Below are positions 2,756 through 57,491 of a stretch of 64,000 nt of DNA, one piece after another (the first letter of the stretch is position 1; every line of letters starts with the position of its first letter). The stretch is from Gemmatimonadota bacterium (lineage in GTDB: Bacteria; Gemmatimonadota; Gemmatimonadetes; Gemmatimonadales; GWC2-71-9), in NCBI GenBank assembly GCA_003246755.1, contig QKDC01000102.1:32804-96803 (forward strand), written 5' to 3'. A program made the position numbers and the translations under genes. The notes under the pieces were generated by a model. It did no database searches, was not told where the DNA came from, and saw only the letters and a list, made by a program, of their open reading frames with translations.

Positions 2756-3139
2756 GGGGTCGGGCGGGATGGTCGCGGGAGAACTTCGGTTCACCCGAGG
2801 AAAGTCCGAGCTCCATCGGGTAGGCTGCCAGGTAACGCCTGGGCGCCGCGAGGCGACGGAACAGGGCCACAGAAAAGACACCGCCTCCACCCAATGGGTG
2901 TGGGGTAAGGGTGAAATGGTGGGGTAAGAGCCCACCGCATCACTGGCAACAGCGATGGCGAGGCAACCCCCAGTCGGAGCAAGGCCAAATAAGCGACGAG
3001 GTGTGACCCACACCGTCCCCCACCGGCAACGGTGTAGTCGCGGGTAGGCCGCTCGAGGCGTCCGGCGACGGACGTCCCAGAGAGATGACCATCTCCCTCA
3101 CGGGGGAAACAGAACTCGGCTTACGGCCCGGCCCACCCC
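2756..3139 (+). ncRNA. rnpB: RNase P RNA, bacterial type A
   Basis: Universal motifs seen directly: GAGGAAAGTCCG (2797-2808), CCAGGTAACGCCTGGG, ACAGAAAAGACACCGCC, GGGTGAAA, GGTAAGAGCCCACC, ACAGAACTCGGCTTAC near the 3' end. The 5' GGGGTCGGGC can pair with the 3' GCCCACCCC (P1). No convincing protein ORF here. Ends approximate to +/-10 nt. Confidence 0.9.
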
Positions 3140-44100: not shown

Positions 44101-44364
44101 ACCGATCTCGAGCGCCCGCTGCAGGGCCTCGGATATCGGCAGTACCCACGACTCAGCGAGGAGGTCCGGTCGCTGTACGGCCAGGTCACGCGGTCGCTGA
44201 GCCGTCCCACGGACGCCCAAGTGGGCCGGTACGGGGAATTGACGGCCGAGACCGAGGCGGCACAGGCGAAACTCAATGCGATCGTGAACGGACGCATTGC
44301 GAAGTTGAACGAGTTGCTGAAGGACTTGCCACACATCATCGTACCGGGAGGGCGGATTAGCTGA
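41167..44364 (+). CDS. BNR/Asp-box repeat (sortilin/VPS10-like) secreted protein
   Basis: 1065 aa with a signal peptide, many S/TxDxGxTW Asp-box repeats (TNGGVTF, TTDGGITW, SVDGGETW, TDDGGETW, SRDGGTTW), and a helical C-terminus. Confidence 0.8.
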   Translation: MRKVNVMFRRRLCTAVVGLVATTSLHAQTPARAPLTGTPELAAIEQLKWRSIGPANQAGRIPMVVGIPGNRSIYYVGSAAGGLFKTTNGGVTFEALFDDQSNASIGDLAIAPSDPNILYLGTGEGNPRNTASVGDGVYKSFDAGKHWKKIGLENTEKIPRIRIDPRNPDVVFVCALGKTWGPNEERGLFKTTDGGITWKKMLYRDNLTGCSDVDIDPGNANVVWAGMYTHQRWPWYFTSGGGETALYKSVDGGETWARLSGKGNGRGLPEGDMDRIGVSVHRANPDVVYVLSETKTEGELWRTDDGGETWATVNRSPNINFRPFYYSDVRSDPVNPNVVYTLSGSLNKSEDGGKTFQTIRRDIHGDHQAMWIDPTDPHYILEGSDGGWQLSYDAGDNWEVVKSHSFAQFYHLNVDMERPYNICGGLQDNGHWCGPSQTLSNQGNRRNDWVTVSGGDGFFAVPDLDHPFMVYSASQGGGIVITDLRTGDQRSIHPYPRRVGSAGDSLAEHKYRFNWNAPIVLAPHDPHTVYFGGNVVFRTRNYGQSWDVISGDLTTNDKSKQQSSGGPIVTDNTAAEFHATILSIAPSPVDSMVIWVGTDDGNIQLSRDGGTTWRNTSQNLRGIAPFAWISTIDASPHDAGTAFVAASHWQTGDYTPYAYVTRDYGRTWSLISSNLPRRGWVHVVRQDPRNPDLLYAGTEFGIYASWDAGARWHDLRKGLSAAPVRDLLVHPRDNDLIIATHGRGLYVLDDIAPLQQLGPAMSDAVTLFQPLPAVRYVMWSRDGNLGQKTWSGENPPYGAVISYAVHDTTRNLRLTIMDEAGNPIRTLRDSLATPGVHQIVWDLRYDADPPGDRPAAVAGSSGGGGGGGFFGFGGGGPSVVPGVYSVTLSAVGQEVTKPLTVELDPRAVVSMDDLIAQRDAALQLRELRSRVNRIVSQTEGLVRQLTEVGGNLRRNAASEREAIAEARAALTELTEFKDTDLERPLQGLGYRQYPRLSEEVRSLYGQVTRSLSRPTDAQVGRYGELTAETEAAQAKLNAIVNGRIAKLNELLKDLPHIIVPGGRIS

Positions 44365-45575
44365 TGAGTCAGAGGTTGTTGGGTGGGCGTGTCGCCCCGG
44401 TTCTCTTGTTCGGTGTCCTCGCGTCCATACCTCTCGCCGCGCAGTCCGCCGAGCGCACCGAGTCACCGGTTGCGGTGTCTGGGCAAGTGTTCGAAGATCG
44501 CAACGGCAACGGGGTTCGGGACGACGGCGAACCGGTCATGGCAGGGATTGCCGTGTCGGACCAGGTCCAGGTGGTGCGAACTGACACCCAGGGCAGATTC
44601 GCATTCGAGGCCGCGGGATATGGATTCGTATCCGTGGCCCAGCCCACAGGCTTCGTCGTGCGAGGCCCCTTCTGGCGGCGTGTCACGGCCGGCGAGGACA
44701 TGGCCTTTCCGCTGGTACGCATCGGCGAGTCGACCGCGTTCGATTTCCTTCACGCCTCGGACACCCACATCAGCGAGGCGTCGGTCGAACGCACAAGACG
44801 CCTTCGCACCCTTGCCGACTCGCTCAAACCAGCATTTGTACTGATCACCGGCGACCTCGTCCGCGATGCGCTTCGGGTCAATGAAGAGACCGCTCGGGGG
44901 CTCTACGAGATACTCGAACGCGAGATCGCGTTGTTCACCGTGCCGGTCTATACCGTCCCGGGCAATCACGAAATCTTCGGCATCGAGCGCGCGAGTTCAC
45001 TGGTAAGCTCCAAGCACCCCCTCTATGGCAAGCGGATGTACCGGCACTATCTCGGTCCCGACTACTACTCGTTCACCTGGGGTGGGGTGCACTTCGTGGG
45101 GCTCAACAGTGTGGACTACGATGACACCGCGTATCACGGCCACGTGGACGACCTCCAAATGAAGTGGCTCGAACGCGACCTCGCCACGATTGGCGACGAC
45201 ACACCCGTGGTCACCTTCAACCATATCCCGTTCGTGAGTACCGGCCCGGTGCTCTACGGCGTAGATGAAAACAGCGTGGCGCCCACCGTGATCGAGATCC
45301 GAGGCGTGCCCCACTTCCGACACACGGTCTACAACAAGGACCAAGTGCTCGATCTCATCGGCGACAGGCTGGCCATCGCACTCGGTGGCCATTTCCACCG
45401 TCTCGAGAGGGTGGAGTACGAAACGACACATGGGCGACGACGGATCTATCAGACGGCGGCGGTCGTGGGGCCTCCCACCGGAACCGGACCGCTCGGGAGT
45501 GTGTCGGGGGTGACCCTCTACCGGGTGCGGGATCGCATCGTCGACAACGGGACTTTCATCCGATTGGATCCTTAG
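44364..45575 (+). CDS. Metallophosphoesterase with N-terminal SdrD-B/Cna-B-like domain
   Basis: Signal peptide. VSGQVFEDRNGNGVRDDGE (SdrD-B-like). Calcineurin-like motifs HASDTHI, GDLV, GNHE. Confidence 0.8.
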   Translation: MSQRLLGGRVAPVLLFGVLASIPLAAQSAERTESPVAVSGQVFEDRNGNGVRDDGEPVMAGIAVSDQVQVVRTDTQGRFAFEAAGYGFVSVAQPTGFVVRGPFWRRVTAGEDMAFPLVRIGESTAFDFLHASDTHISEASVERTRRLRTLADSLKPAFVLITGDLVRDALRVNEETARGLYEILEREIALFTVPVYTVPGNHEIFGIERASSLVSSKHPLYGKRMYRHYLGPDYYSFTWGGVHFVGLNSVDYDDTAYHGHVDDLQMKWLERDLATIGDDTPVVTFNHIPFVSTGPVLYGVDENSVAPTVIEIRGVPHFRHTVYNKDQVLDLIGDRLAIALGGHFHRLERVEYETTHGRRRIYQTAAVVGPPTGTGPLGSVSGVTLYRVRDRIVDNGTFIRLDP

Positions 45576-47050
45576 TCCACCACGGATGGTGCGCCGGGGC
45601 GGTGTGCCGGTGCGTAGCGTTCGAGGTAGCGGTTTACCCGCACTTTGCGGGCTGTGTTCTTGGAACTCATGTACCGGACCTTCCCGAAGATTGGTCGCTC
45701 CGGACCCCATGGACGATCGTACCGCCCGAACGTCCAGAGAATGCCACTGTACGAGTTTGGGTCCTGGCCATCCAAGGCAAAGCGATCGTTCAGGGTAATC
45801 AAGACGTCGAGGGCGACTTCCGGAGACTCGGACCATTCGAGGACCTTCTTGGCCCACAGCATCCTGAGATAGTTGTGCAGTCTGCCCTCGGTACGCAGTT
45901 GAGTCTGTGCGGCGTTCCACAGGCGGTCGTGGGTGTGTCCTCCCGCGAGCTCCTCGAGGGTGTACAGGTGAGGACGAGGATCGTCGGCGTGGTCGGATAG
46001 CGTGTCACGCGCCCATGTGGGGAGGGAGGAGAAGTCCACATAGTCGTGGCGGTGCTGACACATGTTGTATCCCAGTTCCCGCCATGTCACCAGTTGGTCC
46101 ACGAAATCGGCCCCACCCTCCTGCATCCCCCAGCCAGAGCGGCTTCCACGATCTTCCGGCCGCAACTGGTCCGGGGCCCACTCCGCCCATTCCGCGACGC
46201 GCCAGAAGACGTCATGGGCGCCGATGTGCCCAGCACGCAGATAAGGAGAGAGCTCGCTCGTGGCATCCTCATCGGGGACATTCCGGTCCCGCGCATACCT
46301 CGACAGCCGCGATGTCAAGAAATGATCCAGCGCAATCGCTCCCGCTCGAGCGCCACCTCGCTGCGGGGCGACTCCCACTTCGTGGTCGATCGGCAGCGCG
46401 GTCAATGCGGTGGGTGTCGCGGCCAGGAGCTCCGGGGTGGCGGCGGGCCACCGTGCCGCGATCGCGGGAGGCACTTTACCGAGGGATGGGAGACCCAGGT
46501 CCGAGAGTGGTTCGACGAGCGGTGACTCCGCGAGGTGGTCGCCCAACTCCCGATGCAGGAGACGTCGAAAGGAATAGGCAGTGGGATAGGGTCGCTCCGG
46601 GACTCCGAGCGGAACGAGCCCATTGCTGTCCACCGCTTCGACTCGTGGGCGCATGCGAGGTTCCACATTTCCGTGCGGTCGACGGAGAAAGGCCGGCACG
46701 TCATCGGTCACCACGACCGCGGCGTGCTCGGCCAGGGCTGAGGGGAGGTCGACCCCCTCCCCGGGAGTGGGTTCCACGTAGGGGTAGTAGGTGACCTCCG
46801 TAGTGGCGAATCGGGCGGCGTTGTCGTGCATGCCCTGCAGCGTGAAGGCATGGAGGCGATCGCTGGCCCAGGGATAGGTGATCGGTAGTGTTTCCAGGAC
46901 CACCAGAGGCTTGCTGGTCGCGTGCGCCCAGTGGAGAGCTCGCTCCAAAGCGAAGTTGAATCGGCACCGCCGGGTCGCGTGCATCCAATAGAGCACAAAC
47001 TCGCCGTCACCTCGGACGGGGGTGTCGCGTACGAGTCGCACTCGGTTCAT
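45572..47050 (-). CDS. phr: Class II CPD deoxyribodipyrimidine photolyase
   Basis: ATG 47050 gives MNRVRLVRD..GEFVLYWM. The C-terminal segment GRLHNYLRMLWAKKVLEWS..LDGQDPNSYSGILWTFGRYDRPW..FGKVRYM is the class II photolyase signature. Confidence 0.88.
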   Translation of the reverse strand: MNRVRLVRDTPVRGDGEFVLYWMHATRRCRFNFALERALHWAHATSKPLVVLETLPITYPWASDRLHAFTLQGMHDNAARFATTEVTYYPYVEPTPGEGVDLPSALAEHAAVVVTDDVPAFLRRPHGNVEPRMRPRVEAVDSNGLVPLGVPERPYPTAYSFRRLLHRELGDHLAESPLVEPLSDLGLPSLGKVPPAIAARWPAATPELLAATPTALTALPIDHEVGVAPQRGGARAGAIALDHFLTSRLSRYARDRNVPDEDATSELSPYLRAGHIGAHDVFWRVAEWAEWAPDQLRPEDRGSRSGWGMQEGGADFVDQLVTWRELGYNMCQHRHDYVDFSSLPTWARDTLSDHADDPRPHLYTLEELAGGHTHDRLWNAAQTQLRTEGRLHNYLRMLWAKKVLEWSESPEVALDVLITLNDRFALDGQDPNSYSGILWTFGRYDRPWGPERPIFGKVRYMSSKNTARKVRVNRYLERYAPAHRPGAPSVVD

Positions 47051-47140: not shown

Positions 47141-47668
47141 TTAGAAGTTCGCTCGAAAGCCTAATCCGAAAGGCCAGACCCAGCCGGCCTTGGTACCGAG
47201 CTCAGCCTCCTTGGTGAAGGCGATATCTCCCTGGGGGCTGATCAGGAGATCGAACTGATCCGAGAGCGCGATGGCGATTTTGGCGCCCGCGTTGATCGCG
47301 GGATAGGTGAAGCTTTCTGCCAAATCTCCGCCGAATTGGACGAGGCCGCCGCCCAGGTTGACCGTCACGGTCACCTTCTCGGAGGTGTAGAGATCGTAGC
47401 CGACCTTCCCCATCAAGTGGTAGGTGTTGATCTTCCCGGTTTCACCCTTGATGCCATGGTAGCCGACATCCCCGTCGACCATGAGGCGGATCCGGTCGCT
47501 CGCGAGATAGCCCAACCCTGCACCGAATCCAGGGCCGACTTCGGCGGCATCGGCGATCCCGAAGGTTGGCACCACGGCCACGCCGCGCGCCTCAAGGCTG
47601 AACTGCGCCTCTGCCGGACTGGCCAGCAGGGCGAAGAGTGCCAGGACTGGCAAGGACTTCTTGATCAT
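47141..47668 (-). CDS. Small outer-membrane beta-barrel protein
   Basis: ATG 47668 is preceded by AAGGAG. Signal peptide MIKKSLPVLALFALLASPAEA, alternating beta-strand pattern, and a C-terminal ..GFRANF (terminal Phe). Confidence 0.75.
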   Translation of the reverse strand: MIKKSLPVLALFALLASPAEAQFSLEARGVAVVPTFGIADAAEVGPGFGAGLGYLASDRIRLMVDGDVGYHGIKGETGKINTYHLMGKVGYDLYTSEKVTVTVNLGGGLVQFGGDLAESFTYPAINAGAKIAIALSDQFDLLISPQGDIAFTKEAELGTKAGWVWPFGLGFRANF

Positions 47669-47708
47669 ATTCCCGTTCTCCTTTGAACTCGAGTGAATCA
47701 CGACAGAA

Positions 47709-47726
47709 ACGTGGCAAACGCCACGT
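47709..47726 (-). promoter_or_regulatory. Perfect inverted repeat in the predicted 5' UTR of the OM-barrel/photolyase operon
   Basis: ACGTGGC-aaac-GCCACGT (7-bp arms) containing the CACGTG palindrome. Lies between the predicted -10 (47758-47763) and the start codon at 47668. Confidence 0.4.
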
Positions 47727-47757
47727 GGGACCGGCCCATCTGCCGTTTCCCGAGGGC

Positions 47758-47786
47758 AGAATACACAACCGGAGCTTGTTTGTCAA
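47758..47786 (-). promoter_or_regulatory. Predicted sigma-70 promoter for the OM-barrel/photolyase operon
   Basis: On the minus strand: TTGACA (47786-47781), 17-nt spacer, TATTCT (47763-47758). Confidence 0.55.
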
Positions 47787-47797
47787 GCGTTTGTCTA
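47776..47797 (-). promoter_or_regulatory. Two tandem 11-bp direct repeats (candidate CarH/LitR operator)
   Basis: Minus strand TAGACAAACGC (47797-47787) followed by TTGACAAACAA (47786-47776). The second repeat is the -35 of the minus-strand promoter and both lie in the spacer of the plus-strand promoter. Confidence 0.5.
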
Positions 47798-47804
47798 GTA
47801 TTCT
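47776..47804 (+). promoter_or_regulatory. Predicted promoter for the SDR/DUF2867 gene
   Basis: TTGTTT (47776-47781), 17 nt, TATTCT (47799-47804). An alternative is TTGTCT (47791), 16 nt, TATTCT (47813). ATG at 47832. Confidence 0.4.
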
Positions 47805-47831
47805 ATTGGACATATTCTCTACAAAGGTGTC

Positions 47832-49310
47832 ATGAGCAACCAGAACAGCGCGCGACGAGTGTTGGTGACGGGGGCCTCAGGCTATGTGGGCGGGCGACTT
47901 GCCCCGCGCCTCGCGGCGGCGGGGTTCGGGGTCCGGTGCTTAGCCCGGCGGCCGGAGGAACTGGCGCACCGGATGCCGGGCGGTGTCGAAGTGGTCGGCG
48001 GTGACCTGCGGGACCCCGCAGCCGCACGATCGGCGCTCGAGGGGGTGGAAAGCGCCTTTTATCTCGTGCACTCGATGGGGCGCTCCGAGCACTTCGCGTC
48101 TGAGGAGGCCGCGATGGCCACCACATTTGCCGAGGCGGCGAGGGACTCGGGTGTTCGACGTATCATCTACCTCGGCGGGCTTGGGGCTGACGGTCGGCTC
48201 TCCCCGCACCTCGCATCACGCCAACGCGTCGGGGAGTTGTTACGGGCCTCAGGTGTGCCAACCATCGAATTCCGGGCGTCGATCGTCATTGGATCCGGGA
48301 GCCTGTCGTTCGAGATGATTCGCTCGCTGGTCGAGCGGCTTCCGGTCATGGTGACCCCCCGATGGGTGAGCAAGAAGGCCCAGCCGATCGGGATCGAAGA
48401 CTTGCTGCAGTATCTGATAGCCGCGCTCGCCCTCGAGGGGTCCACGTCCGGGGTGTTCGAGATTGGGGGAAAGGACCAGGTGTCCTACCGTGACCTGCTC
48501 CTCGAATATGCTCGGCAGCGAGGGCTGCACCGCGTCATGATACCGGTACCGGTGCTGACGCCGCGTCTGTCCAGTCTCTGGCTCGCTCTCGTGACACCCG
48601 TGTACGCCAGGGTCGGGCGCCAGTTGGTCGATTCGATTCAGCACGATACCGTGGTAACCGACGAGCGAGCTCTTGCCGTTTTCCCCCTTCGACCCGCGGG
48701 CATGAGTGCTGCCATCGCCCGTGCCTTGGCCAATGAGGATCGCGAGTTTGCGGAGACGCGGTGGTCGGATGCCTTCTCATCCTCGGGGTTGTCGATGCAC
48801 TACGGTGGGGTCTCTCTCCACCGCCGCATTATCGACTCCCGGGCCATCAACGTTCCCGTTCCACCAGCTGTTGCTTTTCGACCCATCGAGCGCATCGGCG
48901 GAGCCAATGGGTGGTACTTCGCCGACTCGGTCTGGACACTCCGGGGTTGGCTCGACCTTCTCGCCGGTGGTGTTGGGATGCGCCGAGGCCGACGCGATCC
49001 CGAACAACTCGTGCCGGGAGATGCCGTGGACTGGTGGCGCGTGGAGGCCGTGGATCGCGGCGTCCGTCTCCGACTCCGGGCGGAGATGAAACTGCCCGGA
49101 CGTGCATGGTTGCAGTTCGATGTCGAAAGAGCGGAAGGGGGGAGTGTGGTCCGTCAGACGGCCCTCTTCGACCCGCGGGGCTTGCTGGGGCTCCTCTATT
49201 GGTATGCCCTCTACCCAATTCACGTGATCATCTTCCGAGGCATGCTGCGCGAGATTCAGCTGCGGGCTATCGCGCTGGCCTCGTCGACCAACTCCACAAC
49301 TTCGGTCTAG
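47832..49310 (+). CDS. Atypical SDR/NmrA-like NAD(P)-binding protein with C-terminal DUF2867-like domain
   Basis: Rossmann motif VLVTGASGYVGGRL. A ~200-aa C-terminal extension typical of SDR-DUF2867 fusions. Confidence 0.8.
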   Translation: MSNQNSARRVLVTGASGYVGGRLAPRLAAAGFGVRCLARRPEELAHRMPGGVEVVGGDLRDPAAARSALEGVESAFYLVHSMGRSEHFASEEAAMATTFAEAARDSGVRRIIYLGGLGADGRLSPHLASRQRVGELLRASGVPTIEFRASIVIGSGSLSFEMIRSLVERLPVMVTPRWVSKKAQPIGIEDLLQYLIAALALEGSTSGVFEIGGKDQVSYRDLLLEYARQRGLHRVMIPVPVLTPRLSSLWLALVTPVYARVGRQLVDSIQHDTVVTDERALAVFPLRPAGMSAAIARALANEDREFAETRWSDAFSSSGLSMHYGGVSLHRRIIDSRAINVPVPPAVAFRPIERIGGANGWYFADSVWTLRGWLDLLAGGVGMRRGRRDPEQLVPGDAVDWWRVEAVDRGVRLRLRAEMKLPGRAWLQFDVERAEGGSVVRQTALFDPRGLLGLLYWYALYPIHVIIFRGMLREIQLRAIALASSTNSTTSV

Positions 49311-50245
49311 GCGCTGACGACCAGGGCTTGGAGCACGGCTCTCAGGCTCGGCACGTCTCTCACCCATACCCCTCGAAGCTGGCGGATCGTCTCTTCGTAC
49401 GTCTGCGAAGCTTGTCCTCCCACGAGAAGTGCCACCCCCTCCCCGAGGAGTTGACCTAAGTGCATCAACTCGTCCCGGATATTCGGCGCCGTGGTCGTGA
49501 TACTGACCGCCACGGCGCGGGCGCGGGTGGCCTCGGCGACGCGGGCGATTTCCTGCGCTGGCAGGTCGCCCGAGAGGAACATGGTTCGCCAACCCTCCAA
49601 TGCCGCGACTGCGGTTACCAGGAGCGCACCCAATTCATGTCGCTGCTGAGCTGGAGTCGCGACGAGGATCAGTGGCGCCTCGTCTCCGGGTTGCAGGGTT
49701 TCCGTGAGACGCATGAGTGTCTGTCGGAGTAGCCCAGAGGCTAGGTGTTCGTAGCCCGCTGACATCTCCCCGGTATCCCAGAGTCGGCCGATCTCATACA
49801 TCAATGGGCGAGCGACGGACTCGAGGAACACCAAGGGTGGCAGGGCACTACAGGCCCGTTCGAGCCCCAGGCGCAAACGCTTCGGATCACAGGCGGTCGC
49901 CGCACCCACGACCTCTCGCAGATATGGGGTGGCGTCGTGCTCGTCAGTGCGCCCTGTCGCTGGAGTGCGGGTGCCTTCTGCCGCGCGATCCTCCGCCACG
50001 AGTTGCTGGAGTTCGGGGAGCCCCAGTCGGGCGACCTGCCCCACCCGGCGTCCAGCACCGATCGCCAACCGGATCAGGCGGAGCCGCTCCACGTCGAGAT
50101 CCGAGTACCGGCGCCGACCCGTCGTGCTCCGACCTGGGGTAACCGCCTCATAACGGCGTTCCCACGCGCGCAGGACGTCGGCCGTCAATCCCGCTCGGCG
50201 GGCCACGACCTGAATCGGGTGGCGGGGCTCGGTGGAGAATTCCAT
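49307..50245 (-). CDS. carH: MerR-HTH plus cobalamin-binding light-responsive regulator (CarH/LitR family)
   Basis: ATG 50245 gives [38 protein letters not shown] (MerR HTH). Helical bundle with W-x9-E-H ([12 protein letters not shown]). Rossmann B12 signature QRHELG..x41..SIT..x26..GG. Confidence 0.85.
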
Positions 50246-50255
50246 TTCAGAGGAC

Positions 50256-50284
50256 AAACTAGAGAAACGTACACCCTTTGTCAA
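50256..50284 (-). promoter_or_regulatory. Predicted promoter of the carH-like gene (near-leaderless)
   Basis: Minus strand TTGACA (50284-50279), 17 nt, TAGTTT (50261-50256). The ATG is only 10 nt after the -10. Confidence 0.5.
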
Positions 50285-50294
50285 ATATTGGTCT

Positions 50295-50316
50295 TTGACA
50301 AAACCTTGACAACATG
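50295..50316 (+). promoter_or_regulatory. Two tandem 11-bp direct repeats plus an inverted third copy (candidate CarH/LitR operator)
   Basis: TTGACAAAACC (50295-50305) followed by TTGACAACATG (50306-50316). An inverted copy, TTTGTCAAA, is at 50277-50285, and GACAAAC at 50253-50259. Confidence 0.55.
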
Positions 50317-50334
50317 GCATTCACTCGATATAAT
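50306..50334 (+). promoter_or_regulatory. Consensus sigma-70 promoter for the fasciclin/lipid-modification operon
   Basis: TTGACA (50306-50311), exactly 17 nt, TATAAT (50329-50334). Both hexamers match consensus perfectly in a GC-rich genome. AAAGGAG Shine-Dalgarno at 50401 before ATG 50414. Confidence 0.65.
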
Positions 50335-50413
50335 CATCGACAGGTGCTGGACAAGCTGTCTTTTCGAGCAACCGTGCTCAACATGTCGTTCAACCTCGGA
50401 AAAGGAGTTCACC

Positions 50414-50917
50414 ATGTTTCGTGCTGTCATCCCCGCTGTCGCCCTCGCTGCTCTGGGGTTTGCACCCCAGGCCGCCGTTGCCCAGACCAAGGCTCCGGCG
50501 CCGGATATCGTTGAGATTGCCGCATCTGCCGGCACCTTCAACACGCTGGTCGCCGCGGTCAAGGCCGCTGGCCTGGTCGATGTACTGAAGAGCGATGGCC
50601 CGTTCACGGTCTTTGCCCCGACCGATGAGGCGTTCGCCAAGCTCCCGGCGGGCACCGTCGAGAGTCTCCTCCTGCCGGAGAACCTCGAGCAGTTGAAGGC
50701 CGTGCTGACCTATCACGTTGTAGCCGGAAAAGTGCTCGCCAAGGATGTGGTCGGGCTCAAGACCGCCAAGACGGTGCAGGGGCAGTCGCTGACGGTCAAG
50801 ATCATGAATGGGGTACCGATGGTCGATAACGCCCAGGTGATCAAGACCGACATCATGGCCAAGAATGGCGTGATTCACGTGATCGATCAGGTCGTGTTGC
50901 CCAAGACCAACAAGTAG
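50414..50917 (+). CDS. Secreted fasciclin (FAS1) domain protein
   Basis: Signal peptide [26 protein letters not shown]1 motifs [10 protein letters not shown] and [13 protein letters not shown]. The track ORF 49937..50917 is trimmed to the ATG preceded by a Shine-Dalgarno. Confidence 0.88.
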
Positions 50918-51040
50918 TTTCCAGGGCCGCCTGCGGTGGACCGCCCTTCTCTGGTCCATCGCAGGTAGGTTCCCTCCAACTCGATATCGCCCCTCCGCTT
51001 GGGATGCGATGTCACCTGATGCACTGAGGAGACGGTGAGC

Positions 51041-51928
51041 ATGGGTTGGATCTCTCGGGTGGCCAAGTCGTTTGTCTTGTGGTTCGACACGCATGCCGTT
51101 GCTCCGGACACGATGTTGGCCAAGGACGTGGTGGACTGGTACCGCGTGATCCCCTTCATCGCCGTGCACGTGGCCTGTCTCGGTGTGATCTGGGTGGGAT
51201 GGAGCTGGACAGCGGTCGCAATCGCGGCGGGTCTCTACGCCGTGCGCATGTTCGCCATTACGGGGTTCTACCACCGGTACTTTTCACACCGCACCTTCCA
51301 GACCTCTCGCCTGACGCAATTCATCTTCGCCCTCCTGGGTGCCAGCTCGGCTCAGCGGGGTCCGCTCTGGTGGGCTGCCCATCATCGAAAGCACCACAGA
51401 CACTCGGACACCGAGCTCGATGTGCACTCCCCTGGGCAGCATGGCTTCTGGTGGAGTCACATGGGGTGGATCACGGCGCCGGGCAACTTCCCCACGGACC
51501 TGAACGAGGTGCGGGATCTCGCGAAGTATCCCGAACTACGCTTCCTGGATCGTTTCGATATCCTGGTTCCGGCCGCACTGGCCGCGACCCTGTTCCTGCT
51601 GGGCGGTGCGCAGTGGCTGATCTGGGGATTCTTCGTGAGCACCGTTGTGTTGTTCCACTGTACCTGCTTCATCAACTCGCTGGCACATCAACTCGGGACG
51701 CAACGCTACGATACCGGCGACCACAGCCGCAACAGCTTCTTGTTGGCCCTCGTCACCTTCGGGGAGGGGTGGCACAACAACCACCACAAGTATCCCGGGG
51801 CAGCACGTCAGGGATTCTTCTGGTGGGAAATCGATCTCACCTACTACGGTCTCTGGCTACTGGCGCGGCTGAGAATCATCTCCGATCTGCGGGGGGTGCC
51901 ACACCGTCTCCTCCAAGCACGCTCCTGA
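51041..51928 (+). CDS. Membrane acyl-lipid/acyl-CoA fatty acid desaturase (three-His-box)
   Basis: His boxes HRYFSHR, HRKHHRHSD and HNNHHKYP. ATG 51041 follows GAGGAG; the track start GTG 51035 is also possible. Confidence 0.88.
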   Translation: MGWISRVAKSFVLWFDTHAVAPDTMLAKDVVDWYRVIPFIAVHVACLGVIWVGWSWTAVAIAAGLYAVRMFAITGFYHRYFSHRTFQTSRLTQFIFALLGASSAQRGPLWWAAHHRKHHRHSDTELDVHSPGQHGFWWSHMGWITAPGNFPTDLNEVRDLAKYPELRFLDRFDILVPAALAATLFLLGGAQWLIWGFFVSTVVLFHCTCFINSLAHQLGTQRYDTGDHSRNSFLLALVTFGEGWHNNHHKYPGAARQGFFWWEIDLTYYGLWLLARLRIISDLRGVPHRLLQARS

Positions 51929-53157
51929 TGCGGATTGCGATCGTGGGGAGTGGGGTATCGGGCCTGATCGCGGGGTACCTGTTGTACCCCATGCATGACG
52001 TGACCGTGTTCGAGGCCGATTCGAGGATCGGTGGCCACGTCAACACGATCCCGGTGACGATCGACGGGAATGTCTGGCCCGTGGATACAGGATTCATTGT
52101 CTACAACGAACGCAACTACCCCCTCTTCACCAGGCTGCTGGCGCGACTCGGTGTCGAGACCCAGGCGTCTTCCATGGGGTTCAGCGTCCGCTGTGCCAGC
52201 ACGGGACTGGAGTACAACGGGTCGAGTCTTCGACAGCTGTTTGTCCAACCTCACAATCTCTTGCGCCCGCGATTCTATCGCATGCTGCGGGACATCCTCC
52301 GCTTCAATCGCGAGGCCCCGCGGGACGTGGCCGGCGGGACCGCAGCGACCATTCTGGGCGACTACCTGCAGGCTGGGGGGTATGGGCGGGAGGTGAGGGA
52401 CCACTACCTCGTCCCCATGGGCTCCGCATTGTGGTCGATGCCGCGGAAGAGCGTCACCGAGATGCCGACAGCGTTCTTCGTGCGGTTCTTCGAGCAACAC
52501 GGAATGCTCACCGTGGATGATCGACCCGAATGGCGCGTCGTGACCGGGGGCTCGGACCGCTACGTGAAGGCTCTGACCGCCGGATTCGGCGAGGCGATTC
52601 GCACCCGGTCACCCGTGCACGAGATTCGTCGCGCAATAGACCATGTTCGGGTGAATGGCGAGCGCTTCGATCAGGTGATTCTCGCCTGCCATGCCGATCA
52701 GGCTTTGGAAATGCTGGCGGATCCGTCACCCGCCGAAAGCGAGATTCTCGGGAGCTTCCCCTATCAACACAACGAGGCACTGCTCCACACCGATACCTCA
52801 ATACTTCCCAGCCGATCGCGTGCGTGGGGCGCCTGGAACTACTACCTCCGTGGTGATGCTGAGTCGGCTGCGACCGTGACCTATGACATGAACATCCTCC
52901 AGACCCTCTCCGCCCCCGAGACGTTCTGCGTGTCGCTCAACGCCGAGGACATCGTCGATCCGGCAAGGGTGTTGCACCGGGTGGCGTACACCCATCCCCA
53001 ATACACTGCCAAGGGACACGCAGCACAGGCACGTCGCGCCGAAATCAGCGGCCGAAGGTGCACGCATTACTGTGGCGCCTACTGGGGGTTTGGATTTCAT
53101 GAGGATGGTGTGCGGAGCGGGGTCGAGGCAGCGAAAGGGTTCGGGGCAGACCTGTGA
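51928..53157 (+). CDS. NAD/FAD-binding oxidoreductase (amine-oxidase/COG2907-like)
   Basis: MRIAIVGSGVSGLIAGYLL..VFEADSRIGGH dinucleotide-binding motif. The ATG overlaps the desaturase stop (TGATG). The N-terminal part of track ORF 51046..53157 is an out-of-context extension. Confidence 0.85.
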   Translation: MRIAIVGSGVSGLIAGYLLYPMHDVTVFEADSRIGGHVNTIPVTIDGNVWPVDTGFIVYNERNYPLFTRLLARLGVETQASSMGFSVRCASTGLEYNGSSLRQLFVQPHNLLRPRFYRMLRDILRFNREAPRDVAGGTAATILGDYLQAGGYGREVRDHYLVPMGSALWSMPRKSVTEMPTAFFVRFFEQHGMLTVDDRPEWRVVTGGSDRYVKALTAGFGEAIRTRSPVHEIRRAIDHVRVNGERFDQVILACHADQALEMLADPSPAESEILGSFPYQHNEALLHTDTSILPSRSRAWGAWNYYLRGDAESAATVTYDMNILQTLSAPETFCVSLNAEDIVDPARVLHRVAYTHPQYTAKGHAAQARRAEISGRRCTHYCGAYWGFGFHEDGVRSGVEAAKGFGADL

Positions 53158-53912
53158 AAAGTCGACTCTACATCGGAGCCGTCCGACACCGTCGGTTTCA
53201 CCCAGTGCCCCACGCATTCCGCTACCCCCTCTTCATGCTCTATCTGGACCTGGCGGAACTCCCCGTGGTGTTCGACGGGCGCTGGCTCTGGTCGGCCAGA
53301 CGCCCCGCTCCAGCCTGGTTTCGCCGAGCCGACTACCTCGGCGACGCAGCCGTACCGCTGGCCGACGCGGTGCGCAATACCGTATCGGCACATGGGGGCA
53401 AGCCACCCACCGGACCGATCCGGATGCTCACCCACCTCCGGTACTTCGGGTACGTACAGAACCCGGTCACCCTCTACTACTGCTTCGACACGGACGACCG
53501 TTCCGTCGATACGATCGTGGCGGAGATCACCAACACCCCGTGGGGTGAGCGGCACGCCTATGTCCTGACGCGCGAGGACAATCTGGGGAAGAACGGAGTG
53601 CAGCGGTTCCGGTTCGAGAAGGCATTCCATGTCTCCCCGTTCATGGCCATGGATCACCAGTATGATTGGCGGTTCAACGAACCGGGACGACGGCTGGTGG
53701 TACATATGGAAAACCGTCAGGCCGGCTCGAAGATCTTCGACGCCACCTTGGCGTTACGACGGGAGGCAATGACGGGTCGTGCGCTGGCGTCCGCGCTCGC
53801 GCGCTATCCCTGGATCACGGCGCGGGTAGCCCTGGGGATCTACTGGCAAGCACTGCGGTTGGGGATCAAGCGGGTCCCCTTCCACACGCATCCACGAAAG
53901 CAGGTTACATGA
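53154..53912 (+). CDS. DUF1365 family protein
   Basis: MKSRLYIGAVRHRRFHPVPHAFRYPLFMLYLDLAEL is the characteristic DUF1365 N-terminus. GTGA overlap with the upstream stop. Confidence 0.85.
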   Translation: MKSRLYIGAVRHRRFHPVPHAFRYPLFMLYLDLAELPVVFDGRWLWSARRPAPAWFRRADYLGDAAVPLADAVRNTVSAHGGKPPTGPIRMLTHLRYFGYVQNPVTLYYCFDTDDRSVDTIVAEITNTPWGERHAYVLTREDNLGKNGVQRFRFEKAFHVSPFMAMDHQYDWRFNEPGRRLVVHMENRQAGSKIFDATLALRREAMTGRALASALARYPWITARVALGIYWQALRLGIKRVPFHTHPRKQVT

Positions 53913-55144
53913 GATTGCTCCAGGAGCTCACGGAAAGGGCAGTCCGTCAACGCTTGCACCGATTGACACATGGAAGACTCACACTCAACTACGAGACTTC
54001 CACCACGGTCTTCGGTCAGGGCAACGGTCCGGCGGTCAGTGTGACAGTCCACGACTCCGCCTTCTTCACCGCACTCGCCTTCGGAGGGCACCTCGGTGCC
54101 GCCGAGGCCTACATCGACGGGGCATGGGAAACCGACGACCTCACCAGTTTGGTACAGCTCTTTCTCAAGAACCGCGATGTCCTCGACGGACTGGAGCGGG
54201 GGTGGGCCCGTCTCGTGCAACCGGTGCGGAAAGCACTCCACGCGTTGAGCCGAAACTCCCGGTCCGGGAGTCGTCGTAACATTCGGGCACACTACGACCT
54301 CGGCAACGAGTTCTTCGCACTCTTCCTCGACGACACGCTCACCTACTCCTGCGGCGTCTTCGAGCACGAGAGCAGCACCATGCGGGACGCCTCCGTGGCC
54401 AAGTACGACCGGCTCTGTCGCAAGCTGGAGTTGTCGCCGGAAGATCATGTTCTGGAAATCGGCACCGGGTGGGCCGGTTTCGCCGTACACGCGGCGAGTA
54501 CGTATGGTTGCCGGCTTACGACCACGACGATCTCCGAGCAACAGTATCAACTTGCGATCAAGCGCGTCGCCGACGCCGGACTCACGGATCAGGTCACCGT
54601 CCTGCGGCAAGATTACCGCGACCTCGAGGGTAGCTTCGACAAACTCGTCTCCATCGAGATGATCGAGGCGGTCGGGCATCAATACTTCGACACCTACTTT
54701 GCACAGTGCGCGCGCCTCCTCAAGCCGCATGGTCTCGCGGCGATCCAGGCGATCACCATCCAGGACCGGTACTACGATTCCGCGCGTCGCGAGGTGGACT
54801 TCATCAAGCGCTACATTTTTCCGGGCAGCTGCATTCCCGCCGTGTCCGTCCTGGCGGCATCGGCCGCGCGTACCGATCTCCGGTTGGTGCACCTCGATGA
54901 CATCACACCCCACTACGCCGAGACACTCCGGCTCTGGCGGAACCGATTCGTCGCGAACTGGGACCGCATCAAGGCCTTAGGGTTCTCGGCTGAATTCAAA
55001 CGACTCTGGGAGTTCTACTTCTGCTACTGCGAAGGCGGATTCCGCGAAGCCGTGCTGGGTGACGTGCAACTGCTGTTCGCCAAGCCCGCCGCGCGTCCTG
55101 CACTGGCAAGGCCTGGAGCCACATCGGTGGTCACCCCCGCATGA
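53909..55144 (+). CDS. Cyclopropane-fatty-acyl-phospholipid synthase family SAM methyltransferase
   Basis: CMAS family: HYDLGNEFFALFLD, SAM motif VLEIGTGWAGFA, C-terminal FYFCYCEGGF. ATGA overlap with DUF1365. Confidence 0.9.
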   Translation: MRLLQELTERAVRQRLHRLTHGRLTLNYETSTTVFGQGNGPAVSVTVHDSAFFTALAFGGHLGAAEAYIDGAWETDDLTSLVQLFLKNRDVLDGLERGWARLVQPVRKALHALSRNSRSGSRRNIRAHYDLGNEFFALFLDDTLTYSCGVFEHESSTMRDASVAKYDRLCRKLELSPEDHVLEIGTGWAGFAVHAASTYGCRLTTTTISEQQYQLAIKRVADAGLTDQVTVLRQDYRDLEGSFDKLVSIEMIEAVGHQYFDTYFAQCARLLKPHGLAAIQAITIQDRYYDSARREVDFIKRYIFPGSCIPAVSVLAASAARTDLRLVHLDDITPHYAETLRLWRNRFVANWDRIKALGFSAEFKRLWEFYFCYCEGGFREAVLGDVQLLFAKPAARPALARPGATSVVTPA

Positions 55145-55911
55145 TATCACTCGTCCTCATCGGGTGGGCGGTGCTCGCGGTCGCCCTCGGCCTGCTCTGG
55201 GCCCGTCAGTTGGTCACTAAGAATGCCACCAGTGTCGACGTTGCCTGGTCGGGTGGACTGGCATTTCTGGCTGGGTACTACGCGTGGTTCGCCGAGGGCG
55301 ACACCACCCGCCGGGCGCTGGTGGGAACCCTCGCCGGACTCTGGGCCCTGCGACTGGCATGGCATCTCCTGAGTGATCGTGTGTTGCGACACACGGAGGA
55401 AGACGGTCGCTATCGCGCGCTTCGGGCGGAGTGGGGGTCGCGTGCCGGACGGAACTTCTTCTTCTTCTACCAAGCCCAGGCGGCAGTGGCCGTGCTGTTT
55501 TCCCTCCCCATCCTCGCGGCGATGCGCGGAGGAGCCGTGGATACACTCGCCTGGGCTGGGGTGTTGATATGGTTCGTTGCCGTCGGTGGCGAGACGTTGG
55601 CCGACCACCAACTCGCGCGTTTCAGGGCTGATCCGACGAACCGGGGTCACGTCTGTCAGACGGGTCTTTGGCGCTACTCGCGACACCCGAACTACTTCTT
55701 CGAGTGGGTCCACTGGTGGGCCTACGTTGTGATTGGCACAGGCGCCTGGCTCACCTGGACCGGTCCTGTGCTGATGCTCCTCTTTCTCTTTCGACTCACC
55801 GGGATCCCTTACACCGAACAGCAGGCGCTCCGCAGTCGAGGGGACCGCTATCGCGAGTATCAGCGCACCACGAGCGTGTTCATCCCCTGGTTCCCCCGGA
55901 AGTCGTCGTGA
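55141..55911 (+). CDS. DUF1295 family membrane protein (steroid-reductase/ICMT-like fold)
   Basis: Multi-TM protein with GLWRYSRHPNYFFEWVHWW. ATGA overlap with the upstream gene. Confidence 0.85.
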   Translation: MISLVLIGWAVLAVALGLLWARQLVTKNATSVDVAWSGGLAFLAGYYAWFAEGDTTRRALVGTLAGLWALRLAWHLLSDRVLRHTEEDGRYRALRAEWGSRAGRNFFFFYQAQAAVAVLFSLPILAAMRGGAVDTLAWAGVLIWFVAVGGETLADHQLARFRADPTNRGHVCQTGLWRYSRHPNYFFEWVHWWAYVVIGTGAWLTWTGPVLMLLFLFRLTGIPYTEQQALRSRGDRYREYQRTTSVFIPWFPRKSS

Positions 55912-56954
55912 GTCCCGCACTCGGTGTTGCCTTGGCCGAACGCGGACTGGTGCCGCTTCCTGGGCTTCGGCTCGGTATCCGTCGACTTCTGGTCGAGCGG
56001 CTTCGGGAGCAAGCCGGGGCGCCCGGTATCGAAGACTTTCTCCGCGAACTCGAACGCGCTCCGATTGCGCTCCAGCCGGAGAAGGCCAACCAACAGCATT
56101 ACGAAGTGCCGCCGGCGTTCTTCGAACTCGTGCTCGGCCCACATCTCAAGTACAGCGGCGCCTACTGGCCCGAGGGGACTCGGGACCTCGGGGAGGCAGA
56201 AGCTCGCATGCTCGCCCTGACGTGTGAGCGTGCCGAGCTTGCCGATGGTCAAGCCATCCTGGAGTTGGGTTGCGGATGGGGATCACTGACGCTGTACATG
56301 GCCCGGCAGTTCCCGGCGAGTCGGATCGTCGCGGTATCCAACTCTGCCCCGCAACGACGGTTCATCGAGGCTCGGGCACCAGACAACGTCGAAGTCATCA
56401 CCGCCGATATGAACACATTTGCGACGGATCGCCGGTTCGACCGTGTGGTGAGCGTCGAAATGTTCGAGCACATGCGGAACCATCGCGAATTGCTGCGGCG
56501 CATTGCAGGGTGGCTCGGCGAGGATGGCAGGCTCTTCGTGCATGTGTTCTGCCATCACACATACGCCTACCTGTTCGAGACTGACGGCGAACACGACTGG
56601 ATGGGCCGGTTTTTCTTCACCGCCGGTCTCATGCCGTCCTATGACATGCTGCCTCGGATCGATGGCGACCTCGAACTCGACGCGCGGTGGCCCGTGAACG
56701 GTATTCACTACGCCAGGACGGCTGCGGCGTGGCGAATCAATCTCGAGAGACGTCGTCTGGAGGTAATGCACGTGTTGCGGGACACCTACGGAGGCGACGC
56801 CGAGCGTTGGTACCACCGTTGGCGACTCTTCTTCCTTGCCTGCGAGGAGCTGTTCGCCTATCACGACGGTGAGGAGTGGTTCGTAGGCCACTACCGTTTT
56901 CGGCCGCGCCTGCAACCCGAGTGTGGCCAGAGCACCCAGCCCGCTGATCCATGA
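55908..56954 (+). CDS. Second CMAS-family SAM-dependent methyltransferase
   Basis: GTG 55908 (GTGA overlap). ANQQHYEVPPAFFELVLGPHLKYSGAYW, SAM motif ILELGCGWGSLTLYMA, C-terminal WRLFFLACEELF. Confidence 0.85.
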   Translation: MSPALGVALAERGLVPLPGLRLGIRRLLVERLREQAGAPGIEDFLRELERAPIALQPEKANQQHYEVPPAFFELVLGPHLKYSGAYWPEGTRDLGEAEARMLALTCERAELADGQAILELGCGWGSLTLYMARQFPASRIVAVSNSAPQRRFIEARAPDNVEVITADMNTFATDRRFDRVVSVEMFEHMRNHRELLRRIAGWLGEDGRLFVHVFCHHTYAYLFETDGEHDWMGRFFFTAGLMPSYDMLPRIDGDLELDARWPVNGIHYARTAAAWRINLERRRLEVMHVLRDTYGGDAERWYHRWRLFFLACEELFAYHDGEEWFVGHYRFRPRLQPECGQSTQPADP

Positions 56955-57415
56955 CCTCAAACCTGCTCGAGCGTCGACAAGTGCTTCCCGCGCCCCTGGA
57001 AGAAGTGTTCGCCTTCTTCAAGGACCCGCTCAACCTGAGCATCATCACCCCGCCATGGCTCAATTTTCGTGTGCGCCGGATGACCGATCCGGTCGTGCGA
57101 CGTGGAACCAGGATCGGCTATGACATCAGGTGGATGGGCTTGCCCATGCGATGGGAGTCGGTCATCGCCGAGTACATCGAAGGGGAGCGGTTTGCCGACG
57201 AGATGATTCGAGGACCCTACACCCACTGGTATCATCTCCACTCCTTCCGCCGCGTGCCGAATGGCACCGAAGTGGGCGACCGGGTGGATTACGAACTACC
57301 GCTCGGCCCGGTCGGGAGGCTGGCACACCGTGTTCTGGTCCGCCGGCAACTCGAAGGGATCTTCGACTTCCGCAGGCGCCGATTGGAAAAGATCTTCCCG
57401 AAAGATCCGGGATAG
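56951..57415 (+). CDS. SRPBCC (START/cyclase-dehydrase-like) lipid-binding family protein
   Basis: 154 aa with VFAFFKDPLNLSIITPPWLNF..GPYTHWYHLHSF, typical of the COG4276-type SRPBCC. ATGA overlap with the upstream gene. Confidence 0.75.
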   Translation: MTSNLLERRQVLPAPLEEVFAFFKDPLNLSIITPPWLNFRVRRMTDPVVRRGTRIGYDIRWMGLPMRWESVIAEYIEGERFADEMIRGPYTHWYHLHSFRRVPNGTEVGDRVDYELPLGPVGRLAHRVLVRRQLEGIFDFRRRRLEKIFPKDPG

Positions 57416-57491
57416 GCCCGCCACGGTCCCCCTTGCGCCGACAGGCCGAGAGCCCGATTCTACGAGCTTCAACTCCCAGGACACACCCTCA

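Follow-up and report, generated by a model that had tools for sequence, protein, structure and literature searches.

What purpose is served by a perfect consensus promoter, flanked by tandem repeats, in G+C-rich bacterial DNA? This question is raised by a Gemmatimonadota contig (QKDC01000102.1), of which we analyzed a stretch of 64 kb with 63.5% G+C, referred to below as the window. There, the region between a carH-like regulator gene and a divergent fasciclin gene carries two back-to-back promoters and a set of short repeats phased at 11 bp. Promoter elements are, here and throughout, predictions read from the sequence. We consider it probable, at roughly 80%, that positions 50256-50353 constitute a compound operator-promoter module of the product of the adjacent gene, a putative CarH-type repressor that would sense light through adenosylcobalamin (AdoCbl). 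The evidence consists of the elements themselves, their rarity in the window, their conservation and phasing in relatives, and the domain and motif content of the regulator. A sequence-only reading of the locus had already proposed that the repeats form a CarH operator over back-to-back promoters, and the match to the published CarH consensus, together with an enrichment of 11-bp pairs upstream of homologues, supports that proposal. It was, however, incomplete, having overlooked a degenerate half-site (TGTACG, 50273 to 50268), a further pair (50337-50353) and a whole second operator (47781-47823).

Half-sites and promoters between carH and the fasciclin gene

The promoter facing the fasciclin gene consists of the -35 hexamer TTGACA (50306-50311, plus strand) and, after a spacer of 17 nt, the -10 hexamer TATAAT (50329-50334), a 12/12 match to consensus that is the sole one in the 64 kb even when one mismatch is allowed (expected 0.02). 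Its -35 hexamer doubles as the second half-site of a proximal pair, the first being another TTGACA just upstream on the same strand (50295-50300), and the two belong to the direct repeats TTGACAAAACC (50295-50305) and TTGACAACATG (50306-50316), spaced 11 bp apart. On the minus strand, a further TTGACA (50279-50284) is at once the first half-site of a carH-side pair and the predicted -35 hexamer of carH. The predicted -10 hexamer, TAGTTT (50256-50261), follows at 17 nt and stands 10 nt before the ATG at 50245; it matches TATAAT at only 3/6 positions and hence is absent from the list of a promoter scan. The second carH-side half-site, the degenerate TGTACG (50268-50273, minus strand), lies inside the carH promoter spacer, 11 bp from the TTGACA at 50284. 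A 9-bp inverted repeat reaches from one of these pairs to the other, TTTGTCAAA (50277-50285) being exactly complementary, in reverse, to TTTGACAAA (50294-50302). The perfect promoter, the direct and inverted repeats and the minus-strand promoter had all been pointed out in the sequence-only reading, and each reads as it was described. A distal pair, TCGACA-N5-TGGACA (50337-50353, plus strand), starts 2 nt past the -10 hexamer and spans the expected transcription start.

The carH-fasciclin intergenic region holds six phased T-n-n-A-C-A/G half-sites in three 11-bp pairs, with the T at -22, -11, 0, +11, +42 and +53 relative to 50295 (50273, 50284, 50295, 50306, 50337 and 50348). On the fasciclin strand the half-site centers fall at 0, 11, 42 and 53 bp, near whole helical turns, which would place the sites on one face of the DNA; one-face binding has been reported for other CarH proteins (PMC9304148). 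The 11-mer AACCTTGACAA (50302-50312) had been put forward as a full fit to the CarH consensus, and it does satisfy nAnnTnnACAn at all five specified positions; its neighboring 11-mer agrees only in the T and the ACA. As the sequence reads, no usable -10 hexamer stands at 16-18 nt from the TTGACA at 50295. The promoter scan additionally lists a minus-strand TTGTCA-17-AATATT (9/12; 50284-50312) that overlaps the proximal repeats and is a possible second, upstream carH promoter, by eye seemingly not conserved in relatives.

These elements are rare in the window. The heptamer TTGACAA occurs four times, always within the two intergenic regions of the carH gene cluster, and 4/8 copies of TTGACA fall in the two operator regions. 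Matches to TNGACA-N5-TNGACA number three against 0.05 expected, and those to TNNACA-N5-TNNACA four against 0.42, a count reached by 0/100 shuffles; all four lie in the two intergenic regions beside carH. When the pattern that had been suggested for defining a regulon, T[TA]GACAAA-N3-TTGACAA, was run on the window, it returned a second site at 47780-47797 (minus strand). Relaxed patterns (T..AC[AG] or T.GAC., each in two copies) gave a few matches inside coding sequence elsewhere, near the shuffle expectation, and these were not taken as operator candidates. As a separate observation, TTGACA is under-represented in the 64 kb, with 8 copies versus 19.4 expected from dinucleotide-preserving shuffles (at least 8 in 100/100 shuffles).

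By analogy with the characterized CarH proteins of Thermus, Bacillus and myxobacteria, from which we transfer the logic of dark repression and light induction, the module could operate as follows. In the dark, AdoCbl-bound CarH oligomers would bind the six phased half-sites in their three 11-bp pairs. The carH-side pair would cover the -35 hexamer and spacer of a near-leaderless carH promoter, and thereby provide autoregulation. The proximal pair would cover the -35 hexamer, and the sequence just upstream of it, of the perfect sigma-70-type promoter for the fasciclin gene and probably for the lipid operon behind it, and the distal pair would cover the transcription start of the same promoter; bound CarH would exclude RNA polymerase. 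Light would photolyse the cofactor, the oligomer would fall apart and both promoters would fire. CarH as the binding protein, its stoichiometry and the transcription starts are parts of this scheme that we infer. Perfect consensus hexamers are in keeping with a promoter that is inherently strong and kept silent by a repressor.

The repeat and its arrangement upstream of carH homologues

An earlier scan of a genome collection with a single protein had found none but remote B12-domain relatives (25-39% identity, chiefly from Chloroflexota and Deltaproteobacteria; L001-L046), and these were left out. With an alignment of 40 homologues as the query, a metagenome scan gave 80 loci encoding CarH relatives of 33-48% identity. 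Within 160 nt upstream of 72 carH homologues we counted 67 same-strand TnnACA pairs at 11 bp. The remaining spacings up to 21 bp gave 0-7 each, and smaller maxima stood at 22 bp (with 11 pairs), at 32 bp (9) and at 42/43 bp (14 and 13). Among the controls for the 11-bp pairs, mononucleotide shuffles gave a mean of 0.5, the carH coding sequence gave 0, and the rest of the same loci gave 11 in 212 kb; the density upstream of carH is about 110-fold above that in the rest of the loci. The motif accompanies carH in at least 47 of 73 diverse loci, whose base composition runs from AT-rich to GC-rich. When all 6-mers of the upstream regions were ranked without bias, TTGACA, TAGACA, GACAAA and TGGACA came first; the ratios and order of this ranking are valid and its absolute counts are not, each 6-mer being counted twice through canonicalization.

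In the position matrix built from 72 exact pairs the consensus is nAnnT-n-G-A-C-A-a, and 51/72 have A at -3 from the T; the variants TAGACA, TGGACA and TCGACA retain the T and ACA positions. As aligned here, the family matrix is the published CarH repeat, nAnnTnnACAn (PMC8156234; nnnnTnnACAn in PMC9304148). Exact TnnACA chains upstream of the homologues comprise about 60 pairs and 5 triples, which makes the pair the modal unit. Relative to the carH start, pairs begin at -39 to -31 on the carH strand and at -51 to -45 and -97 to -85 on the opposite strand, and the window sites at -39, -50 and -92 occupy all three of these clusters. Characterized CarH operators have three or more contiguous repeats in the same orientation, a run that the window does not contain. 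That only two clear repeats were seen, where CarH has three, had troubled the sequence-only reading. The worry loses its force since pairs are modal in the family and operators with one or two good repeats are still bound (PMC9304148).

Could the repeats instead be the operator of a different, unlinked regulator, for example a response regulator of the OmpR/PhoB type, with CarH nearby for unrelated reasons? Pho-box-like sites, too, are direct repeats with 11-bp periodicity and contain TGTCA, and the link from the window CarH protein to the window DNA is one that we infer. However, an activator box of the OmpR/PhoB type consists of direct repeats that stand in for a missing -35 hexamer at an activator-dependent promoter, whereas here the -35 and -10 hexamers are perfect, which suits repression over activation, and one pair lies downstream of the -10. 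Pfam searches of the cluster proteins revealed no response-regulator gene in the carH cluster. Moreover, the motif travels with carH in the diverse loci counted above, is present in relatives at further promoters of this set of light-related genes, and matches the experimentally defined CarH repeat (PMC8156234), one 11-mer being identical to a Thermus operator repeat. We regard control by such a regulator as very improbable.

In closer relatives, whose CarH is 51-58% identical to the window regulator (loci L129, L130/131, L132/133 and L134/135), the layout assigned here to CarH extends beyond the single pair. L129, L130, L132 and L134 share one intergenic order, namely the distal pair, about 31 bp, the proximal pair with an outer TTGACA, a 10-nt center, the carH-side pair beginning with TTGACA, TAnnnT and the ATG. 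The second carH-side half-site reads TGGACG in L129, TGGACA in L130, TAGACG in L132 and TAGACA in L134. The 9-bp inverted repeat of the window is the center of a conserved four-half-site core with a fixed central spacer of 10 nt, a length found in 21 matches as compared with 1-3 for every other center length from 8 to 22 nt (484 kb). In a gapless alignment of 15 distinct cores, the half-sites, the distal-pair positions and the -10 regions are conserved and the spacers are not; the most conserved half-site is the -35 hexamer of the fasciclin/lipid promoter (TGTCAA in carH orientation), and the first carH-side half-site is TTGACA in most cores. In the cultured Gemmatirosa kalamazoonensis (L137), of the same phylum, this inverted core likewise precedes the carH homologue, on plasmid 2, NZ_CP007130.1, at about 780851-780894. 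The succession of -35 hexamer, 17 nt, TAnnnT, 6-10 nt and ATG is kept at the carH promoters of five relatives, Gemmatirosa and Thermus, and this supports the earlier suggestion that carH may be leaderless or near-leaderless and autoregulated.

A complete module at 7551-7636 of L130 has T offsets that are base-identical to those of the window, including the distal pair at +42/+53 from the first proximal T (7620/7631). It lies between two same-strand genes, and the inverted pair is therefore not merely a by-product of divergent promoters. We used it as the sole non-divergent example; the gene upstream of Gemmatirosa carH gave no Pfam hit on either strand, and its strand is ambiguous. Near the carH homologue on plasmid 2 of this organism there are also further exact pairs, TAGACAATAGATTGACA and TGGACAATCCATTGACA (L137 1806-1822 and 4964-4980), one of them immediately downstream of carH.

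Conservation also bears on the possibility that the repeats are promoter elements only, that is, duplicated or alternative -35 hexamers and A-rich upstream sequence serving strong bidirectional transcription, with the 11-bp spacing incidental. The two most conserved half-sites are indeed exactly TTGACA, placed as -35 boxes 17 nt from -10-like hexamers, and the weak minus-strand TTGTCA-17-AATATT (50312 to 50284) overlaps the repeats. Yet half-sites that cannot be -35 boxes, among them the pair past the -10 hexamer and the second carH-side site within the spacer, are conserved at fixed 11-bp offsets, and the variants TAGACA, TGGACA and TCGACA keep the T and ACA that a CarH repeat specifies. Moreover, the 11-bp peak is a peculiarity of the sequence upstream of carH, the window is otherwise depleted of TTGACA, and the copy at 50295 lacks a usable -10 hexamer. 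An explanation by promoter elements only appears scarcely tenable to us.

If the module is bound by CarH, its constancy might point to a clade-specific operator grammar that is undescribed for characterized CarH proteins: a fixed module of six half-sites, made of an inverted four-site core, with two leftward and two rightward sites around the 10-nt center, and of a further pair that sits at the transcription start, three helical turns off. The core would perhaps be bound by one tetramer through all four DNA-binding domains with two-fold symmetry, and a second oligomer would sit at +1. We advance this only tentatively, as a possibility with the odds against it. Binding of the core as one unit is suggested by the exact spacing being kept where there is no divergent gene (L130 7551-7636). 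In the Thermus CarH structure, three of the four domains occupy three same-direction repeats, as opposed to the symmetric use of four proposed here, which could be allowed by the longer inter-domain segment of the window regulator (by about 20 residues). The fixed geometry (-22, -11, 0, +11, +42, +53) could reveal how a flexible tetramer reads differing half-site layouts.

The regulator and its counterparts in other bacteria

The carH-like gene (49307-50245, minus strand) encodes a protein of 312 aa with a MerR winged-helix DNA-binding domain, a four-helix bundle and a Rossmann-type B12-binding domain. Pfam MerR_1 is matched at residues 11-73 (E 2.5e-14), and B12-binding_2 (residues 111-178) and B12-binding (193-292) each score above their cut-offs. 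The structures 5c8d/3whp of Thermus thermophilus CarH match over both domains (E 1e-20) and the CarH B12 domains in PDB 5c8a/8c31 match at E ~2e-13; the recognition-helix segment, which aligns with GLSAEVLRQWERRY, is near-identical to that of Thermus CarH. The Wx9EH motif, a discriminator of B12-dependent CarH from B12-independent CarA (PMC8156234), is present (W156, E166, H167) and invariant across 40 aligned homologues, as are the lower-axial histidine H203, G206, and the GxxW, EH and P229 signature positions. With respect to the cobalamin-binding motif of CarH, E/DxHxxG-x41-SxV/T-x22-27-GG (PMC8156234), the protein has H203, G206, S-I-T after 41 residues and GG after 25 more, the first position being Gln201. 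The homologues bear Gemmatimonadota names, and the CarH equivalog of NCBIfam (NF052513) is the best-scoring family, with full-length coverage. As had been read from the sequence at first, the protein is carH-like: its domains, the Wx9EH motif and the match to Thermus CarH support a CarH/class I LitR-type regulator. The start that gives 312 aa is shared by the homologues and by independent gene calls. A reading of 337 aa from an ATG at 50320 was ruled out, since homologues and independent calls use the shorter form and the longer start lies inside the opposing promoter.

Several observations weigh against the interpretation as a CarH operator and should temper it. In the main region, only 2/6 half-sites have A at position 2 of the published consensus, and one reads ACG instead of ACA. 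Upstream of the homologues there is no conserved third repeat beside the pairs; flanking positions carry low information, and an exact third repeat at +22 accompanies 7/71 pairs. The invariant half-sites coincide with -35 hexamers, so that sigma-70 recognition, and not a repressor, accounts for part of their conservation. The metagenomic loci are partly non-independent (L104 and L111, for example, have one site sequence in common). A hairpin at 50930-50965 makes it uncertain that the lipid genes are transcribed together with the fasciclin gene. As for the protein, Gln replaces the acidic residue of E/DxHxxG in 39/40 clade sequences, and Ser225 is found in the window protein alone, compared with Gly in 39/40 homologues; given Gln201 and Ser225, AdoCbl binding by the window regulator is not guaranteed. 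The score against NF052513 is 99.7 bits, short of the equivalog cut-off of 400, and we take the regulator to be a distant relative of the sequences behind this model.

The clade-wide Gln, the unique change from Gly to Ser at 225 and the low equivalog score, together with the fact that LitR classes II-V sense by other routes (PMC9758184), favor a regulator that binds the sites but does not act as an AdoCbl/light switch, being B12-independent like CarA, or responsive to another cobalamin form, or dependent on a partner protein. To this must be opposed that Wx9EH is intact and invariant, as are the lower-axial histidine, GxxW, EH and P229, that both B12-binding Pfam domains are above their cut-offs, and that the target genes are protective against light and ultraviolet (UV) damage. 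We judge it unlikely that the regulator senses something other than light through AdoCbl.

For an operator of a light-sensing CarH, the kind of repressor and operator is known, and the new features are the phylum, the target gene set and the layout, which consists of pairs, one of them inverted at a fixed distance and another located distally at +1. Upstream of carH in Thermus thermophilus (L136), TGTACAAAAGC TTGACAAAACC TATACATTGCC form three contiguous repeats, of which the middle one is the -35 hexamer, with TACCCT 17 nt on and the ATG 6 nt later. Both regulators are two-domain proteins with Wx9EH and the lower-axial histidine, and in both systems the 11-bp repeat nAnnTnnACAn has one copy that doubles as a TTGACA -35 hexamer (PMC8156234; Thermus operator in PDB 5C8D/5C8E/5C8F). 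Even the 11-mer TTGACAAAACC is common to them, as the central repeat in Thermus and the first repeat in the window. The distance from the carH -10 hexamer to the ATG is 6-10 nt in both, suggesting leaderless mRNA, and photolyase and other light-response genes lie beside carH in both.

They differ in layout: the three repeats of the Thermus operator adjoin and point the same way, with neither an inverted nor a distal pair, whereas the window has three separate pairs, one of them inverted. Furthermore, ldrP is annotated at the Thermus locus, where, going by the title of Takano et al. 2014 (cited in PMC11417400), the crtB and photolyase genes are controlled indirectly through LdrP; beside the window carH there is no ldrP homologue, and the operators lie directly on the target promoters. 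The window regulator also differs by its inter-domain segment, some 20 residues longer, and by Gln at the acidic residue of ExHxxG.

The CarH operators of Bacillus megaterium and of the myxobacteria Cystobacter, Sorangium and Haliangium likewise have tandem 11-bp TnnACA repeats over the -35 and/or -10 hexamers. They are, however, described as three to five contiguous repeats of one orientation that control carotenoid genes (per CarH-type operator, 3 contiguous repeats in Thermus, 4 in Bacillus and 5 in Myxococcus), whereas in the window the pairs are discrete, 31 bp apart, or inverted across the fixed 10-nt center. No carotenoid genes were found in the carH cluster by Pfam searches of its proteins. 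The site of Myxococcus xanthus CarA, a CarH paralogue, was first described as inverted repeats (palindromes pI/pII), one of them over the -35 hexamer (PMC9304148), and inverted arrangements of such half-sites thus have a precedent. A later reading of this site sees five repeats of one direction instead (PMC9304148), and CarA differs in having no Wx9EH motif, in not depending on B12 and in being relieved by the anti-repressor CarS (PMC8156234).

Class II LitR of Pseudomonas (PplR1/PmlR2) is a MerR-type repressor of the LitR/CarH family whose light-induced genes include those for photolyase, a short-chain dehydrogenase (SDR), a flavin adenine dinucleotide (FAD) oxidoreductase and a cyclopropane-synthase-like fatty-acid enzyme (PMC9758184). 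In Pseudomonas mendocina there are, as in the window, two sites per promoter, the first over the -35 hexamer and the second past the transcription start but ahead of the start codon (PMC9758184). The half-sites of these repressors are TGTACA-N12-TGTACA and not T-n-G-A-C-A at 11 bp; no such site was met on reading 50246-50413 and 47669-47831, where the spacing is 11 bp from start to start. The Pseudomonas proteins, furthermore, lack the full B12 module and are under control of a LOV-domain anti-repressor (PMC9758184), whereas the window protein has a complete B12 module.

Predicted target genes and their surroundings

The second operator (47781-47823) separates the divergent genes of an outer-membrane protein (OMP) and of an SDR. 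Its minus-strand pair, TAGACA-N5-TTGACA (47781-47797), contributes the TTGACA (47786) that is the -35 hexamer of a predicted OMP/photolyase promoter, TTGACA-17-TATTCT (10/12), with the -10 hexamer at 47758-47763. Its plus-strand pair, TGGACA-N5-TCTACA (47807-47823), ends 8 nt ahead of the SDR start codon. The two pairs form a divergent four-half-site core with a 9-nt center. A distal pair downstream of the window OMP promoter was looked for and not found. The OMP gene in L132 is also preceded by an equivalent pair. This operator would place the OMP/photolyase operon and the SDR gene under the same control as the main region and, being of the same type, it suggests that the module drives a regulon for protection from light and UV damage.

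The outer-membrane beta-barrel protein gene (47141-47668, minus strand; Pfam OMP_b-brl), a predicted regulon member, is followed downstream by the gene of a class II cyclobutane pyrimidine dimer photolyase (45572-47050, minus strand). The identity of the photolyase comes from PDB (2xry/8oet, E ~1e-71) and NCBIfam (TIGR00591 phr2, E 3e-101) searches, a Pfam search of the product giving no hit. On the other side, the NAD-binding SDR/NmrA-like protein with a DUF2867 domain (47832-49310, plus strand; Pfam), likewise a predicted member, is convergent with carH. In the predicted OMP 5' leader, the minus-strand transcript contains a 7-bp inverted repeat, ACGTGGC-N4-GCCACGT (47709-47726), followed by TTTCTGT on the transcribed strand; the repeat may fold as a leader structure or act as a weak attenuator.

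On the carH-distal side of the main region, the sequence-only reading had placed the promoters between the carH-like gene and a lipid operon. The position holds, but the first gene after the consensus promoter encodes a secreted fasciclin-domain protein (50414-50917, plus strand; Pfam Fasciclin, E 5e-40), and the lipid genes begin at 51035, behind the hairpin. A fasciclin gene adjoins carH in 23/80 metagenomic loci, mostly divergently, and is divergent in L129-L132; in relatives, the SDR/DUF2867 gene is co-directional with the fasciclin gene and directly downstream of it. The hairpin (50930-50965, plus strand) is stable, with a G+C-rich stem of 13 bp and no T-run, and stands just past the fasciclin stop codon and before the desaturase gene. 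The gap between these two genes measures 117 bp, and folding of 50915-51034 gives -56.6 kcal/mol (z -4.25). The hairpin could serve in RNA processing or stability, or it could terminate transcription partially and so set the ratio of fasciclin to lipid-gene expression.

The lipid-modification operon (51035-57415, plus strand; Pfam and NCBIfam) is tightly packed, with overlapping start and stop codons. It encodes a fatty-acid desaturase, an FAD amine-oxidase-like protein, a DUF1365 protein, a cyclopropane-fatty-acid-synthase-like enzyme, a DUF1295 protein, a second, CMAS-like methyltransferase and an SRPBCC protein. Judging from gene order, it resembles the Rhodobacter furan-fatty-acid operon RSP1091-1087 (PMC7380195). 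Besides the class II photolyase, the cyclopropane-fatty-acid-synthase, DUF1365 and FAD-oxidase genes mark the targets as related to light and UV, similar genes being found in the light-induced LitR regulons of Pseudomonas (PMC9758184).

The carH neighborhoods of relatives (L132 1668-2645 and 7481-9040; L129-L131) contain genes for a RudS-type tRNA 4-thiouridine desulfidase (2-thiour_desulf and DUF1722) and for a photolyase-related DPRP protein, as well as SRPBCC genes and single- or triple-fasciclin genes. The RudS, DPRP and SRPBCC genes add to the light-related ones (PMC11417400), and the neighborhoods suggest a wider conserved light-response gene set.

In the literature searched we found no study of CarH in Gemmatimonadota, and our reading of the locus would extend the paradigm of the B12-photoreceptor repressor to this phylum. 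The compact light regulon that we predict consists of damage-protection rather than carotenoid genes, with the class II photolyase, the furan-fatty-acid-like lipid operon, the secreted fasciclin protein, the outer-membrane protein and the SDR/DUF2867 protein as its members, and in relatives also RudS. CarH is in wide use as an optogenetic and biomaterial tool. A natural promoter module that is bidirectional, of consensus strength and, as predicted, tightly repressed could be of practical use, and the cultured Gemmatirosa kalamazoonensis KBS708, a relative with the same core, makes the predictions testable.

The light cluster is flanked by a gene for a BNR/sortilin-type repeat protein (41167-44364, plus strand) and by one for a Ser/Thr kinase fused to PD40/TolB-like beta-propeller repeats (57261-60122, plus strand), both without operator-like pairs. 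Farther away, positions 2756-3139 (plus strand) encode a full-length bacterial RNase P RNA of class A (285 bits), the sole Rfam match in the window at the gathering threshold.

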